Source of the DNA: a virus
DNA length: 42,276 nt
IMG/VR virus record: IMGVR_UViG_3300020219_000004
Coordinates: 1-42,276 of that record
Reading direction: 5' to 3' (one strand)
The notes beneath the pieces are model-generated. The model was not told where the DNA came from and ran no database searches. It saw only the letters and a program-made list of their open reading frames with translations. A program made the translations under genes and the position numbers. Below, piece by piece: positions 2,312-35,762 of this stretch (position 1 is its first letter; every line of letters starts with the position of its first letter).

Positions 2312-2543
2312 TGTTCCTACTTAAGCGGTCACGTTCCCGTTCCGTAAGTCCTGCCCAAACGCCCCCTCGTTCCTTATGGGCTAGTGCTTCTGTTCTACAG
2401 AGGTCAATCACGCAGCAATTTTCGCAGATACTTTTGGCGATGGCAATAGCTTTTTTGTCCCCATCTTCAGGGTGCATCACCGAGACATCCACCAGGCGGC
2501 AATTTCCCTGGTCAGATAATATCTCTTGGGGTTTCATCGTCAT
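2271..2543 (-). CDS. whiB: WhiB-family (Wbl) Fe-S transcription factor
   Basis: Four Cys in WhiB spacing (C15 ... CENCCVIDLC) followed by the GVWAG turn and a basic tail (TERERDRLSRN). Confidence 0.8.
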   Translation of the reverse strand: MTMKPQEILSDQGNCRLVDVSVMHPEDGDKKAIAIAKSICENCCVIDLCRTEALAHKERGGVWAGLTERERDRLSRNIGREHGRRTKSQG

Positions 2544-2673
2544 CCTTATTATGTTCGCTCATATAATCAGGCGCTTCGTCGGGTAAAAATCTAAACCAAC
2601 CCATAACAATCTCACCTAGCTTTTTTATGCTTGGCAGAATCTCAATCTTGGGAAATGGTTCTTTGTCTACCAT
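2512..2673 (-). CDS. Small hypothetical protein (53 aa)
   Basis: ATG four nt after GAGGTG; its start overlaps the stop of the upstream 44-aa ORF (ATGGTAG). Confidence 0.3.
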   Translation of the reverse strand: MVDKEPFPKIEILPSIKKLGEIVMGWFRFLPDEAPDYMSEHNKDDDETPRDII

Positions 2674-2801
2674 ACTTCACCTCTAAACCATCCAGCTATC
2701 AAGAAACCAACCGCCAGAAAACCAACGGCAGGTACCACAAAACTAAACGTCTGTAAGATTACAAAGGTTATCGTAAAGATGATACCCACCAAGATGAACA
2801 T
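2667..2801 (-). CDS. Small hydrophobic membrane peptide (44 aa), lysis-cassette associated
   Basis: MFILVGIIFTITFVILQTFSFVVPAVGFLAVGFLIAGWFRGEVW; almost entirely hydrophobic and downstream of the endolysin. Confidence 0.35.
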   Translation of the reverse strand: MFILVGIIFTITFVILQTFSFVVPAVGFLAVGFLIAGWFRGEVW

Positions 2802-2805
2802 TTTT

Positions 2806-2988
2806 TTATGCCTTTCGGATAGCGTCGGCGTAACCAACACCGAGTAGAACGGTTATAGCTCGTTCTATGTCTACGTTGCGGTCAATAACTTGTGTAGTCA
2901 CTGCACCAGCGTAAACAATTAGAACCAGCTTGCCAAGTAAACGCTTTCGTCCATCCAGTCTTGCCCAGAATGATTTTAATAGACTCAT
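2806..2988 (-). CDS. Small membrane protein (lysis-associated candidate)
   Basis: 60-aa ORF with hydrophobic core LGKLVLIVYAGAVTT, immediately downstream of the M23 endolysin. Confidence 0.45.
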   Translation of the reverse strand: MSLLKSFWARLDGRKRLLGKLVLIVYAGAVTTQVIDRNVDIERAITVLLGVGYADAIRKA

Positions 2989-2998
2989 ATTTTCCTCC

Positions 2999-3679
2999 TT
3001 AAATTATTTCCCCATCACTATCTACGAATATATCGACCAATCCATATGTATCGGTACGGATAGTGACAGTATTGGGGTACTTACTCACAGCCTCTATCCT
3101 GTAGGTAAGACCAGGTTTTCCGCCTGGACCATGATAATAATTCTGAGGTATCAGGTAGCCAATTCGTTGTGAACGGATAGGTTGCTGCCCCACACGGTAA
3201 ACACTCCATTGTGGTACAGGGTGCAAATATAACATACGTCCAATTCTAGTGTCTCCAGTTGGTACGGGTGCTGGCGGTTGAGCCACAACTAATGCCTCGG
3301 TGTCTACATAGTTAGCGAATCCGTCACCAAAGCCTGTACCACCCTTACGTGCGTCCCAGTGGATGTGTGGCCCTGTACTTGATGAACCAGTGGAACCTGA
3401 CAGGCCTACTTGCTGACCTTCGGTAATATACCTACCGTTCGGTACGAGCCGTTGGTTTAGATGCAGCAAACGATGCCGCCTGCCGTCATCACCATCTATT
3501 TCGATATAATTGCCAACAGTATTTGACCAGCCTTGAGCCGCAATTTTCCCATTAACGGGGGCTACTATAGGGTTGTTACGCGACAGAGCATAATCCGTCC
3601 CTAGATGCTTACCATAAAAACCACCTGTGGGGCTACCGTGTTTGCTTGTGATGTTTGTGGATGAGCTTGGTCTGCGCAT
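2999..3679 (-). CDS. M23-family metallopeptidase endolysin
   Basis: HxxxD (HLGTD) and HxH (PHIHWD) zinc motifs in M23/LytM arrangement. The C-terminal ~90 aa may be a wall-binding module. Confidence 0.8.
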   Translation of the reverse strand: MRRPSSSTNITSKHGSPTGGFYGKHLGTDYALSRNNPIVAPVNGKIAAQGWSNTVGNYIEIDGDDGRRHRLLHLNQRLVPNGRYITEGQQVGLSGSTGSSSTGPHIHWDARKGGTGFGDGFANYVDTEALVVAQPPAPVPTGDTRIGRMLYLHPVPQWSVYRVGQQPIRSQRIGYLIPQNYYHGPGGKPGLTYRIEAVSKYPNTVTIRTDTYGLVDIFVDSDGEII

Positions 3680-26818: not shown

Positions 26819-26917
26819 CTACCCCTGATAGGTTTCGCCATAATGATATATTGCAGCTTCTCTATATGCATCAATAGCTTTGTTTTTATCATTATACTTA
26901 CCTAAACTATACCTAAT
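26819..26917 (-). pseudogene. 3' remnant of an AP2-domain homing-endonuclease gene
   Basis: A stop-bounded 32-codon frame reads IRYSLGKYNDKNKAIDAYREAAIYHYGETYQG-stop. LGxF/Yxxxxx-A-xxAYxxAA-xxxxGE is the AP2 C-terminal signature. There is no N-terminal part. Confidence 0.45.
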
Positions 26918-27164
26918 TCATATTAATCAACAACCGATAGTGAGCGTGGCATAACTTACAACGTATATTGATAGCTACCCCAAAGTCTATCAAAGGCATT
27001 GGAGTTGAGATAATCTTGTCTACTGTCCCTTTCACGTCAACTATCGTTCTTTTGCAAAACAAGCAATTCAACGGCTCCATCTCCGGTGTATCATCGCTCA
27101 ATAAATAAATAGATATTGGCGGCGAGTACCTATGGTCCTTAAATGGCTTTTCGTAATAACTCAC
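26913..27164 (-). CDS. Small zinc-ribbon protein
   Basis: 83 aa with CLFC...CKLC; its start overlaps the TerL stop. Confidence 0.5.
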   Translation of the reverse strand: MSYYEKPFKDHRYSPPISIYLLSDDTPEMEPLNCLFCKRTIVDVKGTVDKIISTPMPLIDFGVAINIRCKLCHAHYRLLINMN

Positions 27165-29716
27165 GTTACTCTCCGTCTTTTATTCTTAACTAAACTGCGT
27201 TCTATAAAAGCATCAAAATCCATACCCAAAGCATTCTTCGTACTAACGGTATTATGCTTACTATCTACAATAATACCAGAACTCTTCCTGGTAGCCGAAG
27301 GTCTCACCCCGCCTGCGGAGTCTGGCCCCATAGAAAAAGATTGCCCAACACGGAAATAAGCCAGCGCATGACAATTACTAACTAAAATACCGTTAGCATA
27401 GTATTCGTGTTCACCTTCAACCGTTAAGTTGTAAACGTTTCTTTTCCCTAAACTTTCGGGCGTGGATACGATTGCTACAGGCTTTTGAACACCACTTATT
27501 ATTTTGTCGCCAATGAGAAGTAACCTTCGTACCACATCCAATACAGTCAAAAATAATTGGTTCTTCCAAATAGAAAGCTTTTTGCGCATTATCTCGTAAG
27601 TGTTGCTTCCCCTTTTTGGATGCCAACCAAGCATGCGATTTGATACGAACCTCGTCCAAGTGTTCCCTGTTCCGCTTGACATATTCTGGGTCGGTAAATC
27701 GCTCCAAGTTATGATGCGTACGGTGTTCGCTATCTTTAATAAGGATGAGATTACCAAGGGAGTTGTTGAGAGGATTGTGGTCTTTGTGATGGACGACAAA
27801 CCCCATGGGGATGCTGCCATTGTGCGATATCCAAAACTCTTGGTGATAACGTTTCCGTCCCTTGCCCCGTTCCGTACTTCCTGAGGTAAAGTAAACTCTA
27901 TCGCTTCTATTTTTTGAATCTGGATATCTACGATATATAACGCCTTGAAAAATAATTGCTTCGGCTTTTGCCATGTTTTAATTCTATCAGAGTATGCCAA
28001 AGCATGCAACTCTACGAAACCTTTTTCTGTAGCCACTTTATGATTAGGTGTAGCAATAAGCTCCGCACCATTACTGAATTTATATTTATTAACTGCCGCG
28101 TTTTTCTTAGTCATCCATGCCCGACTAACCCTCCTGTAACCCTTGCTAGTCAGGGCATAATCACCAACTTGAACATTTTTTATCTTAATATCCCCTCGTA
28201 AAGTTTTAATAAGCGAATCCCCAGAAATGCACCAGTGGTCAGGTTTATTCTCCTTCGTGAGCCATCTAGCCTTAGGGATACCCCTAGTATCAGGCACCAC
28301 TACCCTATATACATTTTCGACATGCTTTATCAAATCCTCTAAATCTTTTGGCTCCTGGAAAAACCTCATCTTCCCACTCGTCACATCAGCTGCCAAAAGG
28401 TCAAAAAGTTTAGTCCTATCAGACTGTAAGACCCCAAAATCCATCCCTTCCTTGCGTTTGCTCACTTCCATGCTCGTAGAATTATCTGGTGAATAATAAT
28501 GCACATAGACGCGTCCAGGGTACTTCCTGGATAATTGTTCGGGAATGGTGAAGTCCGGTAGGGCATCTATTACGGCGGTAGCGTTATACATCGTTATAAG
28601 TCTCTCAATATCCTCCCAGTCGGTAGTCTTCCCATAACTGAATATTCCTGAAGGATTGCCCATCACCCAATGTTTTTCTTTCCCTGAGTCACAGCCTATA
28701 ATCACATCCCGCTTCTCCGCGAGGGCAGGTTGGCAAGCCCGTAAGACAGACTCTCTATTGATAAGAAATTCAGAGGCCTGATAAGGTAAACCGAGAACGA
28801 AGTTATGAAACACCTCAATATTCATAGAAGCCTTCTGCTGTAGAATCTTCCGCGCGCTCACCCAAGGAATCATCAACTGAGACAACCAGTAACCCCTCCG
28901 ACCTATCATATGCCCCTTAACCCACCTCGGCCCCCTTTGAGGGAATCTAGGTAGCCAGCGGCCCTTCTGACGGTCATGCTCCATCAATTCCTCGTTACAT
29001 GACCCACAGGCATAAACTTCCCTCTCCTCATCTATATAGTGATTCTTCTCACCTTTTTCAAAATCCATAAACCACTCATGCCCACAATGCCCGCAGGTAA
29101 CAAACCAGTGCATCTGATCTGAGTCCTGATAAAGCTCATGCACCCCGAAGCCTGGTATGCTCGGATTGCTAAACCTCCAAAACCACCCATAATCAGAAGC
29201 CTGTAGCCTAGACTGATAAACCGTAAGAACCCCCTGGTCACACCTATCATACTCATCGGCCACAATAAGGTCGGCAGTTGTGCTTATCGCTTCTTTTTCA
29301 GTAAACGCTCCCCTAAAATATATCCACCTATCACCAACATTTTTAAGTGAAACCGAGTCATCGCCCTTGACCATCTTCCGTATCTCCGGATTCCTATCAA
29401 TCATCGGATTAACTTTCGGCCTTACGAAATCATTCACAACATTTTTCGTCGGTAAAACGTAAATAACATTTAATTTCAAAAAATTAGCAGCATGGATGCT
29501 TTTTAAGATGGCCGCCACACTCCATCCCACCTGAGCGGACTTCATAATCACCTGGTCTGGGGAAGAGTCAGAATAAGGCTGAAGCATAAATCTATGCTTA
29601 GAAAACTCAAAAAGTTTCTGATTCTCATTTATAAGGTTTGAATCTAACACCCACATAGCGGGGTTAATCATGTGAGTTTTGGCTCTTAGCTCTTCTCTAT
29701 TTAACTCTGGCTCCAT
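27161..29716 (-). CDS. terL: Terminase large subunit (lambda GpA-like), interrupted by an intein
   Basis: Walker A-like KSAQVGWS, Walker B LIVADEYD, and GpA-type zinc ribbon CGHCGHEW...CGSCNEEL. After the intein, the C-extein resumes CHALAYF. Confidence 0.85.
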   Translation of the reverse strand: MEPELNREELRAKTHMINPAMWVLDSNLINENQKLFEFSKHRFMLQPYSDSSPDQVIMKSAQVGWSVAAILKSIHAANFLKLNVIYVLPTKNVVNDFVRPKVNPMIDRNPEIRKMVKGDDSVSLKNVGDRWIYFRGAFTEKEAISTTADLIVADEYDRCDQGVLTVYQSRLQASDYGWFWRFSNPSIPGFGVHELYQDSDQMHWFVTCGHCGHEWFMDFEKGEKNHYIDEEREVYACGSCNEELMEHDRQKGRWLPRFPQRGPRWVKGHMIGRRGYWLSQLMIPWVSARKILQQKASMNIEVFHNFVLGLPYQASEFLINRESVLRACQPALAEKRDVIIGCDSGKEKHWVMGNPSGIFSYGKTTDWEDIERLITMYNATAVIDALPDFTIPEQLSRKYPGRVYVHYYSPDNSTSMEVSKRKEGMDFGVLQSDRTKLFDLLAADVTSGKMRFFQEPKDLEDLIKHVENVYRVVVPDTRGIPKARWLTKENKPDHWCISGDSLIKTLRGDIKIKNVQVGDYALTSKGYRRVSRAWMTKKNAAVNKYKFSNGAELIATPNHKVATEKGFVELHALAYSDRIKTWQKPKQLFFKALYIVDIQIQKIEAIEFTLPQEVRNGARDGNVITKSFGYRTMAASPWGLSSITKTTILSTTPLVISSLLKIANTVRIITWSDLPTQNMSSGTGNTWTRFVSNRMLGWHPKRGSNTYEIMRKKLSIWKNQLFLTVLDVVRRLLLIGDKIISGVQKPVAIVSTPESLGKRNVYNLTVEGEHEYYANGILVSNCHALAYFRVGQSFSMGPDSAGGVRPSATRKSSGIIVDSKHNTVSTKNALGMDFDAFIERSLVKNKRRRVT
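27374..28231 (-). mobile_element. Intein (286 codons, TerL aa 496-781)
   Basis: Block A CISGDSLI, block B ELIATPNHKV, block F VYNLTVEGEHEYYANG, block G ILVSN followed by Cys+1. The penultimate residue is Ser, not His. Confidence 0.8.
27417..27974 (-). CDS. HNH homing endonuclease, encoded inside the intein in a different reading frame
   Basis: 185 aa: YRRYPDS...VVHHKDHNPLNNSLGNLILIKDSEHRTHH plus a C-terminal CIGCG...WCSKACSNR zinc ribbon. Start 27974 is 2 mod 3, while TerL codon starts are 1 mod 3. Confidence 0.8.
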   Translation of the reverse strand: MAKAEAIIFQGVIYRRYPDSKNRSDRVYFTSGSTERGKGRKRYHQEFWISHNGSIPMGFVVHHKDHNPLNNSLGNLILIKDSEHRTHHNLERFTDPEYVKRNREHLDEVRIKSHAWLASKKGKQHLRDNAQKAFYLEEPIIFDCIGCGTKVTSHWRQNNKWCSKACSNRIHARKFREKKRLQLNG

Positions 29717-29723
29717 TTATGTA

Positions 29724-29732
29724 AGTGTATCA
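29724..29732 (-). promoter_or_regulatory. Extended -10 promoter TGATACACT, 7 nt before the TerL ATG (leaderless geometry)
   Basis: Minus strand reads gcaTGATACACTtacataaATGgag. Confidence 0.4.
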
Positions 29733-29734
29733 TG

Positions 29735-30079
29735 CTATACATCTAGGTAGGCTTTGCTTTTTGGATTGCTCTTAGGATAGGGCGAGTAACTACCAGCTCC
29801 ACTGCCATACTTTAGACGGGGGAAGTTCTTTAATGTGTAATGGGCTTCAATCTCTAACTGGGTTTTATGACACGCTGAGTGTGACCATTCATCGTTTGGG
29901 TCGTAATTAGCATAATCACAAGTCGGACAAATTGTGTTCGGGTTCTGTTCGGGTTCTACTTTGTTCGGGTTATGGATAGGTGCTGGATTATCCTCAAAGG
30001 TACGTTTATAGGACATTCTACATTTATCTGAACACCATCTACCCCTGTTGATTGGCTTGGCACAGTTGGTACAAGTCAT
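29735..30079 (-). CDS. Zinc-finger protein
   Basis: 114 aa; N-terminal CTNC...RWCSDKCR zinc ribbon plus a second CPTC...H..CH cluster. Confidence 0.55.
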   Translation of the reverse strand: MTCTNCAKPINRGRWCSDKCRMSYKRTFEDNPAPIHNPNKVEPEQNPNTICPTCDYANYDPNDEWSHSACHKTQLEIEAHYTLKNFPRLKYGSGAGSYSPYPKSNPKSKAYLDV

Positions 30080-33632: not shown

Positions 33633-33832
33633 TGTTCTATAACTTTCATGCCATTTTTGGGGTCGCCCCTAAAAGCCATAACAACACAGTCTTTTATGCC
33701 CATTTGATTTAATTCGTGAAACAAAAGCTGGGCATCTGTATTAGATACCATACGAGTATCAAGCCCAATAATATATTTCTTACCAGCTTCTAACTTAAAA
33801 ACTTCTGCGTTTACTAATTTAATTTTAGTCAT
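33629..33832 (-). CDS. Hypothetical protein
   Basis: 67-aa ORF, overlap-coupled to the GroEL-like gene. Confidence 0.5.
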   Translation of the reverse strand: MTKIKLVNAEVFKLEAGKKYIIGLDTRMVSNTDAQLLFHELNQMGIKDCVVMAFRGDPKNGMKVIEQ

Positions 33833-35466
33833 GCACTTGCTCCAGTCATCTGATTAATTTTTAATTGTTCTAATTGCCAAGCACGGTCAAAAGTTATTGA
33901 GCCATTGAGTGTGATAGCTATGCCCGCAACGTCTGTAGAATTTTCCACGACTGACTTCAATACTTTTACTGGGTCAATTACTCCGGCTTTGATTAGGTCT
34001 ATCGGTTCATCAGTCATGTTCATCACATTAAAGCCGTAACCTGGTTTAGCTTGTAGGACTTGGGATAGGTGGTAGCCTGGGTCTTGTCCGGCGTTGATCA
34101 TTAGTTGTTTGAAGGGTTCGGATAAGGCTTCACAAACTACGTTAAAACCCTCAAGTTCATCCTTATTCATATTTTCTAGTTTAGAGTCTTTGAATATACT
34201 AAACCTTGCCAACACAACAGCCCCACCAGCCACAATACCCTCATCTTTAGCGCATCGGGTGGCATGCACACTATCGTCTACACGAAATTTAGCTTCACGA
34301 CGAGTTGCTTCAGTTGCGCCACCAACTTTGATTATGCCTATTTTACCTTGTAATTTTGCGAGGCGCATTTCCATGCGTTCTTTTTGGTACTGGTTATATT
34401 TATCAGACTTGAGTTGTTTTTTAAGCGTGGTAATTCTTAAATTTACATCTTCAGTGACAGCATTGCCCCCGATTATGGTTGTACTATTTTGAGTAACAAT
34501 AATTTTTTCTGCGTCACCTAGATATTCTTTGGTTACTTTATCGGCCGGTAGGTTATTAGGTACTATCTTACCACCAGTCATGCAGGCTACGTCTTCTAAA
34601 AAGCCTAAAACTTGGTCGCCATAAACCGGAGGGTCTACTACACATACCTTTACTTTGCCAGCTTGATTGGTTAAAGCACAAACTTCTAACGCTTTAGCGC
34701 CTATATTGCCAATGATTAAAACTGTTTTATGTTCGGTGTCTTTGAATACCATTTCTAACATCGGAGCAATATCTTGGACGGAGTTTATTCTTTTCTCGGT
34801 GATCAAGATACTTACGTTGTCGTGGATAGCTTCTTCGGTTTCCCTGTCGGTCACGAAGTGGGGCATTACCCAGCCCTTTTCAAAATACAACCCCTCTACA
34901 ACGTCTTGTATCACGCCAAGGCCGTCGTATTCTTCTACTGTGATGCCTATACCACCAACTTTTATAACTGTATCAGCTACGAGTTTCCCTACTTCGGGGT
35001 CGGTAGCGGATATGGTGGCTACTTCGTGTAGTTTATTATCCGGCACAGGCGTGGCTAGTTTATCTAGTTCGCTTTTTATCCATATTGAGGCTTTGTCTAT
35101 TCCTTTGCGGAGGCCCATAGGGTTATAACCGGCGGCGATGCGCTGGTTAGCTAGACGCATGATGTGATAGCCAAGTAAAACTGTCGCGGATGTCCCGTCA
35201 CCGGATACATCATTACTCTTTTTACTGGCTTCGTGTAGTAGGTCAACGCCAGTGTCCATGAGTTCATCGGCTAGGTTAATTTCTCTTATGATAGATACGC
35301 CATCATGCGTTATGACTTTAGAGCCGTAGGACTTCTGTAAGGCTACATTACCACTTAACGGGCCATAAGCGCAGGCTACGGCTTCATAGGCTATCTTAGC
35401 GCCTGCTAAGGCCTTTATTCGGACTTCATCGCCTGTTGTTACTATTTTACTATCTCCCCTGCTCAT
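33829..35466 (-). CDS. groEL: GroEL-family (Cpn60) chaperonin
   Basis: SGDGTSATVLL (cf. AGDGTTTATVLA), IIKVGGATEATRREAKFRVDDSVHATRCAKDEGIVAGGAVVL and GVIDPVKVLKSVVENSTDVAG are the canonical GroEL blocks. ATG 35466 follows GGGAGGAG; the track start 35478 is less likely. Confidence 0.85.
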   Translation of the reverse strand: MSRGDSKIVTTGDEVRIKALAGAKIAYEAVACAYGPLSGNVALQKSYGSKVITHDGVSIIREINLADELMDTGVDLLHEASKKSNDVSGDGTSATVLLGYHIMRLANQRIAAGYNPMGLRKGIDKASIWIKSELDKLATPVPDNKLHEVATISATDPEVGKLVADTVIKVGGIGITVEEYDGLGVIQDVVEGLYFEKGWVMPHFVTDRETEEAIHDNVSILITEKRINSVQDIAPMLEMVFKDTEHKTVLIIGNIGAKALEVCALTNQAGKVKVCVVDPPVYGDQVLGFLEDVACMTGGKIVPNNLPADKVTKEYLGDAEKIIVTQNSTTIIGGNAVTEDVNLRITTLKKQLKSDKYNQYQKERMEMRLAKLQGKIGIIKVGGATEATRREAKFRVDDSVHATRCAKDEGIVAGGAVVLARFSIFKDSKLENMNKDELEGFNVVCEALSEPFKQLMINAGQDPGYHLSQVLQAKPGYGFNVMNMTDEPIDLIKAGVIDPVKVLKSVVENSTDVAGIAITLNGSITFDRAWQLEQLKINQMTGASA

Positions 35467-35762
35467 TTCTCCTCCCAAGCTATTACACGGCTTATTAAAA
35501 CTAACGACAAGCCTTGCTGTTCTAATTCTATAGGCGTATTGGCCTCGGAGTGTTTTTCAACATAGATAATCTGCCCGATGTCATAGTGAGTGTCTACCAG
35601 CACACCATATTCAAGATAACCTTGATGTTTGTCCATTAATGGTATTGGCGTTTCAATTATCTCAAACCGTTGATGAGTATCCTCAATATCCGCGGCAAGA
35701 CTAAGCCCAGTATCACGCTCTAACTTCTTAACTAACAGATAATTATATGCTGGTTTTATCAT
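35463..35762 (-). CDS. GroES-like co-chaperonin (divergent)
   Basis: 99 aa. IKPAYNYLLVKKLE vs GroES IRPLHDRVIVKRKE, GQIIYVEKHS vs GDIVIFNDGYG, and a C-terminal LVLISRVIAW. ATGA-coupled to the GroEL gene. Confidence 0.55.
   Translation of the reverse strand: MIKPAYNYLLVKKLERDTGLSLAADIEDTHQRFEIIETPIPLMDKHQGYLEYGVLVDTHYDIGQIIYVEKHSEANTPIELEQQGLSLVLISRVIAWEEK

Follow-up and report, generated by a model that had tools for sequence, protein, structure and literature searches.

How can one stretch of DNA be kept as two proteins, read in two frames of the same strand? The question is raised by a viral DNA of 42,276 nucleotides (nt) from the IMG/VR database (record IMGVR_UViG_3300020219_000004, positions 1 to 42,276; the whole of this stretch is called the window below), in which the gene for the large terminase subunit (TerL, encoded by terL) is interrupted by an intein, and the intein in turn harbors, in another frame, a complete open reading frame (ORF) for an HNH endonuclease. 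Our best explanation, to which we assign a probability of roughly 0.8, is that the locus is a mobile intein in a phage terL gene, with its homing endonuclease encoded separately by a gene overprinted in the same-strand -1 (+2) frame. The host gene and its intein comprise the following features, each listed with the evidence that delimits it:

27161..29716, minus strand: terL ORF encoding the 851-amino-acid (aa) precursor of N-extein, intein and C-extein (ORF listing, GpA_ATPase match)
28232..29716, minus strand: N-extein, TerL residues 1-495, with last residues ...KENKPDHW (alignment with intein-less alleles, DNA junction)
27374..28231, minus strand: intein of 286 codons, from Cys1 to Ser-Asn286 and followed by Cys+1 (Intein_splicing match, exact absence from homologues)
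27962..28231, minus strand: N-terminal splicing (Hint) domain, intein residues 1-90, with blocks A and B (T61-x-x-H64 in ELIATPNHKV) (AlphaFold2, BLASTP)
27494..27961, minus strand: intein-frame linker, intein residues 91-246 (no Pfam match, AlphaFold2, substitution pattern)
27374..27484, minus strand: C-terminal splicing domain, intein residues ~250-286, with blocks F and G, VYNLTVEGEHEYYANGILVSN (AlphaFold2, BLASTP, junction residue counts)
27161..27373, minus strand: C-extein, TerL residues 782-851 (CHALAYFRVGQ...) and stop codon (aligns to the AHALAYFRVAQ... of intein-less alleles)

The N-terminal part of TerL matches GpA_ATPase (E=1e-23 in a Pfam profile search), and the interrupting element reads CISGDSLI...ELIATPNHKV...VYNLTVEGEHEYYANGILVSN before the C-extein resumes with CHALAYF, the junction being ...ILVSN|C. 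This bears out the initial annotation, which from the letters alone had described a 286-codon interruption after ...KENKPDHW with intein blocks A, B, F and G and a Cys+1 residue. When excised, the intein matches the Pfam profile Intein_splicing (PF14890) marginally, at 36.2 bits against a cutoff of 35.8. Its N-terminal Hint domain is predicted by AlphaFold2 with a pLDDT score (predicted local distance difference test) of 79-94 and is found by BLASTP in nearly all related loci, and its C-terminal splicing domain is predicted at 88-95, with the C-part likewise found by BLASTP in related loci. In an alignment of 65 sequences (A2), C496 and the block B residue H559 are invariant and T556 is nearly so; across the family, Cys1 is present in 59/59, the terminal Asn in 59/60 and Cys+1 in 56/60 sequences. 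By its Cys1, block B Thr-x-x-His, terminal Asn, Cys+1, profile match and exact insertion, the element is on sequence grounds a class 1 intein, from which it departs at the penultimate position, where the His is missing. As to the start of terL, it lies 18 nt past the stop of the upstream ORF and has no Shine-Dalgarno-like motif upstream (29717-29746), unlike most genes of the window.

The nested gene lies wholly within the intein, at a frame offset of +2 (= -1) relative to terL, and has three features:

27417..27974, minus strand: nested HNH endonuclease gene, 185 codons and TGA, with its own ATG at 27972-27974 (HNH_3 match, AlphaFold2)
27723..27848, minus strand: HNH catalytic core, HNH residues 43-84 (...VVHHKDHNPLNNSLGNLILIKDSEH) (Pfam HNH_3 stretch)
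27477..27545, minus strand: C-terminal zinc ribbon, C144-x2-C147 ... C162-x3-C166 (Cys conservation)

Its product matches the Pfam family HNH_3 (PF13392) with E=1.1e-12 and 47.7 bits against a cutoff of 24.8, and no Endonuclease_7 match appeared in Pfam even at E<=1. The separate-frame HNH gene with its own ATG, stop and zinc ribbon, which the initial annotation had proposed, is thus real, and so is the position claimed for its stop: the TGA arises from GTT-GAA (Val-Glu) of block F, LTVEGEH. Upstream of the ATG, the HNH frame carries stops at 2 and 4 codons, the nearer being a TAA. Eight residues of the protein (H62, H63, D65, N70, N71, N75, H84 and H88) are invariant in alignment A1, and all four zinc-ribbon Cys are invariant in alignments A1 and A4. 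AlphaFold2 predicts the product with a mean pLDDT of 87.2; Foldseek finds weak structural matches between the zinc ribbon and YacG-type zinc fingers, and a phmmer search of the HNH sequence against PDB sequences gave nothing significant. The boundaries of the ORF are a family trait as well. In almost all relatives, the ATG stands 5-12 codons ahead of a conserved strand, ETIxYxGxxYRRYP, and about half of them have a Shine-Dalgarno-like motif; the stop falls in or just before block F, its distance from the last intein residue being -19 in 26 loci, -15 in 9 (the window included) and -14 in 8. We regard the HNH ORF as an autonomous gene; by what mode it is initiated, and how strongly, is something we infer.

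The same layout recurs far beyond the window. A tblastn search with the HNH protein gave matches within the annotated terL of four published phages, namely, Tetrasphaera phage TJE1, Acinetobacter phage Highwayman, Clostridium phage phiCDHM19 and Rhodobacteraceae phage LS06-2018-MD07 (L001, L002, L004 and L005 in our locus numbering). All four have the HNH ORF at offset +2 within an open terL frame, and their inteins end in ...VYNLTVEGEHEY(F/Y)A...N|C; their records name only a "terminase large subunit", and the nested HNH gene (170-230 codons) is unannotated. A scan of IMG/VR yielded 462 confirmed relatives, and in all but one of the best 80 (79 loci), the HNH is nested at +2 within an ORF of 400-1100 codons; recognizable N- and C-terminal intein parts flank it in nearly all. 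The nested loci form 66 groups at 98.5% nucleotide identity. When 65 non-redundant host ORFs were compared with Pfam, 54 matched Intein_splicing and 45 matched Hint_2, and the terminase families represented were Terminase_3 (31 ORFs), Terminase_6N (30), GpA_ATPase (4) and the T7 type (1); an HNH domain in the host frame was found in none of the 65. Among cellular genome contigs, about 30 of 80 loci are nested in the same way, on contigs assigned to Bacteroides, Corynebacterium, Chloroflexia, Planctomycetales, Patescibacteria, Halobacteriales, Thermoplasmatales, Woesearchaeota, Thorarchaeota and others. Protein databases gave little hint of this abundance: the HNH query found only 7 matches among 5.8 billion proteins, and the intein query only 11. 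The search index depends on shared words, and the nested ORF is skipped by gene callers; scans at the DNA level were far more informative. The nested HNH gene has been overlooked in public records, gene callers seldom reporting it.

Could the open intein frame across the HNH gene be a matter of chance? Over the overlap, the intein frame contains no stop and the third frame contains 14, which confirms that both coding frames are stop-free there, as first noted from the ORF list. With the HNH amino acid sequence held fixed and synonymous codons drawn according to extein usage, the intein frame of the window would be free of stops with a probability of 4.2e-6; in the four published phages, this value ranges from 1.8e-8 (phiCDHM19) up to 0.11, varying with G+C content. 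Not one stop occurs in the 13,209 intein-frame codons of the 65 nested loci, against 1,319 stops in the third frame. For comparison, 20 free-standing relatives contain 3-13 stops each in the equivalent frame (mean, 3.7 per 100 codons), and none of the 20 is stop-free.

A second kind of selection emerges when substitutions are sorted by host codon position, which we did for 12 pairs of relatives that are 80-95% identical. In the extein, 17% of substitutions fall at position 1, 10% at position 2 and 73% at position 3, and the intein outside the overlap behaves alike, with 21%, 17% and 62%. Within the HNH overlap, the shares become 19%, 57% and 23%. Since host codon position 2 is HNH codon position 3, the changes in the overlap are concentrated at HNH third positions, and the HNH protein is therefore under purifying selection. 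The frame-specific constraint test that the initial annotation had suggested thus returns a switch of codon phase within the overlap. In the intein frame, in turn, the amino acids of the linker change freely and are constrained only against stops. The predicted folds agree with this division. AlphaFold2 assigns the intein-frame product a pLDDT of ~90 at residues 1-90 and 250-286 and of 25-48 at residues 91-246, so that the HNH protein is modeled with confidence and the linker is not; the linker also has no Pfam match, in line with the early impression that it lacks a recognizable motif. One stretch of DNA thus bears clean signatures of two different kinds of selection. Taken together, the recurrence in 79 of 80 contigs, the absence of stops, the codon-phase switch and the contrast in fold support the view, advanced at the outset, of a maintained dual-coding segment rather than a decayed intein.

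We also compared divergence between the parts of the locus. Over 51 nested loci taken pairwise, HNH identity correlates with extein identity (Spearman 0.61) and less so with that of the splicing blocks (0.23). Coevolution of the endonuclease with the gene it targets is one explanation and saturation of the short Hint blocks the other; saturation is probably the better account of the low value of 0.23, and no conclusion is built on this co-divergence.

Several observations speak against a mobile intein with a working nested endonuclease. The penultimate intein residue is Ser (VSN) instead of the usual His; in relatives, this position is His in 40/60 and Ser in 15/60, and inteins without a penultimate His are known to splice. 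The top PDB match of the HNH model in Foldseek is the homing endonuclease I-HmuI (1u3e), and the match is weak (E=0.16; TM, 0.25). The ATG of the HNH gene lacks a Shine-Dalgarno motif, though most genes of the window have one, and no internal promoter above background was found for it within terL. Finally, intein-bearing relatives close to the window are missing, as HNH identity reaches 49% at best; therefore, purifying selection is established for the family and not for the window's own lineage.

The last of these points, along with the missing motif and promoter, leaves room for a reading in which the HNH ORF is an intact-looking but silent relic of a recent intein invasion, with the endonuclease hardly or no longer expressed and only the intein frame selected. 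There are also relatives in which the HNH frame is broken: with the intein/terL frame fully open, the HNH stops 120 codons early in one locus (L026) and is open for only 13 and 22 codons in two others (L099 and L114), which looks like the endonuclease-decay stage of a homing cycle. The window copy, however, retains all of the catalytic and zinc-binding residues that are invariant in the family, and its ORF is full length, with start and stop at the positions usual for the family. RNA structure at the HNH start is not unusual (z = -0.57), and the predicted minimum-free-energy fold leaves the 15 nt 5' of the AUG unpaired. We therefore consider a silent relic unlikely.

If the HNH gene is functional, its proposed activity is homing, and the empty target site is present in close relatives. 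The comparison of terL alleles with and without the insertion, which had been proposed along with the initial annotation, gave an exact gap in the 120 closest TerL homologues (55-85% identical, 511-631 aa), all of which lack the intein and also the HNH. The gap lies between PDHW and (A/L)HAL: empty alleles read PDHW|AHALAYF and the window reads PDHW-[intein]-CHALAYF, the +1 residue being Cys in the window and Ala or Leu in empty alleles. At the DNA level, the empty site of one such relative (L086) reads ...AAGCCTGATCACTGG|GCGCATGCCTTAGCC.... Further evidence comes from pairs of related loci. In one pair (L054/L057), 181 substitutions separate the exteins (~14%) and 5 separate intein plus HNH (~0.5%), and in another (L020/L023) 110 extein substitutions stand against 6 in the intein. 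Such low divergence of the intein relative to the extein is, as judged from these alignments, the signature of recent horizontal transfer into diverged alleles; it applies at the level of the family and not directly to the window copy.

The same data bear on the possibility that the nested HNH is mainly an accessory nuclease for DNA packaging, kept within terL for co-expression and not for homing. HNH proteins assist terminases in HK97-like phages, and in the HK97 gp74 type a small HNH protein is required with the terminase and conserved alongside it. A packaging role is conceivable here as well, because some free-standing homologues adjoin terminase genes, which is one more point against homing as the main role; that of Acinetobacter phage BP10, for example, lies just upstream of terS without any intein and is 51% identical to the nested Highwayman copy. 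The tracking of extein identity by HNH identity noted above would also fit. Unlike a gp74-type protein, however, the window HNH is absent from all 120 closest TerL relatives and is therefore dispensable for packaging in this lineage, and its Pfam family is HNH_3, the family of the I-HmuI type. In addition, some pairs show a homing signature, the divergence of intein plus HNH being lower than that of the flanking extein by a factor of at least 15, and the decayed HNH copies described above (L026, L099 and L114) persist in intact inteins. A mainly packaging function thus seems quite improbable to us.

Alternatively, the HNH protein might be made by programmed -1 ribosomal frameshifting from the intein frame, as a fusion of N-intein and HNH. 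The HNH frame is indeed the -1 frame of terL, the ATG of the window has no Shine-Dalgarno motif, and in some relatives the HNH frame is open far upstream (94 codons in TJE1, for example). Yet, the TAA two codons upstream of the ATG, with no slippery heptamer between them, would stand in the way of such a product; the position of the ATG is kept in almost all relatives, around half of them with a Shine-Dalgarno-like motif, and free-standing and fractured relatives carry the same protein as an independent gene. In view of the upstream stop, the missing slippery site and the family-wide ATG, we rejected frameshifting as the main route and regard it as very improbable. A sequencing or assembly artefact, in which two compensating indels moved an in-frame HNH domain out of frame, would find a parallel in the in-frame HNH_3 inteins of ribonucleotide reductase (RNR) and RtcB genes in cellular genomes, but it is ruled out for practical purposes because the +2 layout recurs in independent contigs (79/80 from IMG/VR, 4 isolate phage genomes and ~30 genome contigs) and an identical 3321-nt stretch is present in the separate Logan assembly of run SRR6448206, with the exact 851-aa protein on 4 contigs, besides which the HNH gene has its own ATG, upstream stops and stop codon and a stop-free linker is improbable without selection.

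Returning to the mobile intein with an overprinted homing endonuclease, the locus could work as follows. Ribosomes translating terL in frame 0 would produce the 851-aa precursor, in which the two Hint halves (residues 1-90 and ~250-286) would fold together while the ~155-175 residues between them, which are the other-frame reading of the HNH gene, would be looped out unfolded. The intein would then excise itself via Cys1, Asn286 and Cys+1, leaving a 565-aa TerL with its nuclease motif restored across PDHW-C-HALAY. The intein frame being unbroken, there is one contiguous precursor, and splicing would therefore occur in cis. A few ribosomes would instead initiate at the internal ATG (27974) and make the 185-aa HNH_3/zinc-ribbon endonuclease, which would cut or nick the intein-less terL alleles of co-infecting relatives; repair would copy intein and endonuclease gene jointly into the empty site, completing homing. 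Because TerL is essential and needs an uninterrupted precursor, selection would purge stops from the linker frame. For this particular copy, splicing, internal initiation and cleavage specificity are steps that we infer. It is tempting to speculate that nesting in the -1 frame may also throttle expression of the endonuclease through competition with the ribosomes translating terL.

The HNH/Hint lineage exists in other states as well, through which the element of the window is linked to split-intein and free-standing forms by living relatives. The clearest fractured example is Vibrio phage 1.245.O (L169; MG592610.1, 27-3389; also recovered as hits H74-H77), whose terL is broken into three ORFs:

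ends at 2537: N-terminal part of terL with the N-intein
2423-3133: HNH gene, 236 aa, unannotated
3060-3389: C-intein with the C-extein

Here the linker frame contains 14-15 stops, and the locus looks, from its ORF layout, like a natural split intein flanking a relative of the window HNH. In the N-terminal terL part of the same phage (27-1000), before ...DFIVTHN|T, there are LAGLIDADG-like motifs (GDGSIDK..., LMDTDGTV), and these suggest a second, canonical intein in that terL. Eleven genome contigs, mostly from Firmicutes (L106, L108, L109, L111, L117, L118, L122, L124, L125, L138 and L151), have N-intein, HNH and C-intein in separate frames: relative to the N-intein, all three frames are represented among the HNH genes, the C-intein is mostly shifted as well, and the N-intein frame carries 5-36 stops. 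Judging by these frames, they apparently make up a second, common class of fractured loci in prophage-like regions. Mini-inteins of the same Hint family (P0129, P0130, P0131, P0134 and P0135 in alignment A5) have a short loop between blocks B and F with no room for an endonuclease. More distant relatives are the in-frame HNH_3 inteins of RNR and RtcB genes.

Given this spectrum, the overprinted state may be an old, stable and widespread mode of carriage and not a rare, transient accident, a proposal that we hold tentatively and at somewhat less than even odds. If it is true, one HNH_3/zinc-ribbon lineage has occupied the -1 frame of TerL inteins in bacterial and archaeal viruses while diverging to ~30% protein identity, the intein frame never gaining a stop, and the nested, fractured and free-standing forms are a living series of the intermediates proposed by the gene-breaking model for how split inteins and intein-endonuclease fusions arose. 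Contiguous-overprinted, fractured and free-standing states occur within one endonuclease lineage, and the steps of gene breaking therefore become directly comparable and testable.

How does the locus relate to what has been described before? The initial annotation knew of no endonuclease nested out of frame inside an intein, and this did not hold up against the literature. Gosselin, Arsenault and Gogarten (bioRxiv 10.1101/2025.01.02.630785) report actinophage inteins, many of them in TerL, with an endonuclease VII-like gene "in reading frame 3" (e.g., in Keitabear, Sedona and Affeca), and they describe antisense LAGLIDADG and VSR-like genes in inteins, the antisense LAGLIDADG genes having been known since Gorbalenya 1998 according to the preprints cited here. 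As in the window, the actinophage ORF shares the strand of a terminase intein, falls between its blocks B and F, is offset by +2 (as judged from the Keitabear translation) and leaves the intein frame open, with a linker of no recognizable predicted structure; the authors, too, infer that a free-standing endonuclease gene invaded an intein. The endonucleases differ, however: theirs is Endonuclease_7-like (IPR004211; Keitabear CDVCG...LCVDHDHETGRVRGLLCNDCN) and that of the window is HNH_3 with a zinc ribbon. None of their phages was matched in a tblastn search with the TJE1 HNH, and we rejected membership in the same family, since Keitabear shares the offset but encodes an Endonuclease VII-type protein unrelated at the Pfam level. 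Moreover, the architecture is called rare there, whereas the family of the window has hundreds of members in bacterial and archaeal viruses and in several Pfam terminase families.

In the fractured genes of Dassa et al. (2009, PMC2677866), split inteins flank a free-standing endonuclease gene. They resemble the present family in that the endonuclease gene stands between the intein halves of an essential phage gene, terminase included, and in that its 3' end overlaps the downstream intein part, by 6-69 bp in their cases; in the window, the C-terminal splicing domain (27374-27484) takes in the last ~68 nt of the HNH gene, up to its stop at 27417. This same fractured state is found among relatives of the window HNH, in Vibrio phage 1.245.O and many Firmicutes loci. 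The endonucleases of Dassa et al. are GIY-YIG and Vsr-like, however, and not HNH. Another parallel is ShiLan (Arsenault et al. 2025, PMC11855218), in which an HNH insert lies out of frame but has no splicing domains. Both cases combine a hidden HNH gene in an alternative frame with a stop-free host frame, no obvious ribosome-binding site and a distribution suggestive of homing, but the ShiLan insert is thought to remain in the mature protein, whereas that of the window lies within an intein that has all splicing residues, and it would be excised.

Canonical in-frame and antisense inteins share with the window an intein carrying the endonuclease that mobilizes it. The in-frame HNH_3 inteins of RNR and RtcB are related to the HNH core of the window, but make intein and endonuclease as a single fusion protein. 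The cyanobacterial DnaX intein with its overlapping antisense LAGLIDADG endonuclease, recently revisited (Phillips et al. 2026, bioRxiv 10.64898/2026.09.14.751524), shows that an endonuclease in an overlapping frame can be widely retained under purifying selection. Per Gosselin et al., the DnaX endonuclease is encoded on the opposite strand; that of the window shares the strand of its intein but uses the -1 frame, with a start and a stop of its own. In the literature searched, we found no description of an out-of-frame HNH in terminase inteins outside actinophages. The general type was thus already described in 2025; what is new is a different endonuclease family in which the arrangement is abundant, broadly distributed and evolutionarily stable rather than rare. 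For engineering, the linker of ~155-175 residues amounts to an arbitrary unfolded peptide that is apparently tolerated between blocks B and F, which is relevant to the design of insertions into inteins.

Two small Cys-rich ORFs flank terL on the minus strand, neither with a PHROG match. The upstream one (29735-30079, 114 aa) starts MTCTNCAKPINRGRWCSDKC and has a CxxC...WCSxxC ribbon much like the C-terminal ribbon of the HNH protein. The downstream one (26913-27164, 83 aa) contains two CxxC pairs and has a 4-nt overlap with the terL stop; in two relatives (L086 and L087), an 88-aa gene occupies this place. Elsewhere in the window, a 549-aa ORF (33829-35478, minus strand) matches the PHROG "chaperonin groEL" with E=7e-108, and from this match the phage appears to have a GroEL-like chaperonin gene of its own. 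Neither an Rfam scan nor a tRNA scan of the window gave a match. Positions 1-2000 have a G+C content of 0.51, against ~0.41-0.48 elsewhere in the window, and carry overlapping ORFs of ~200 codons on both strands at 369-1044; this segment could be of different origin (host flank or genome end) or non-coding DNA.

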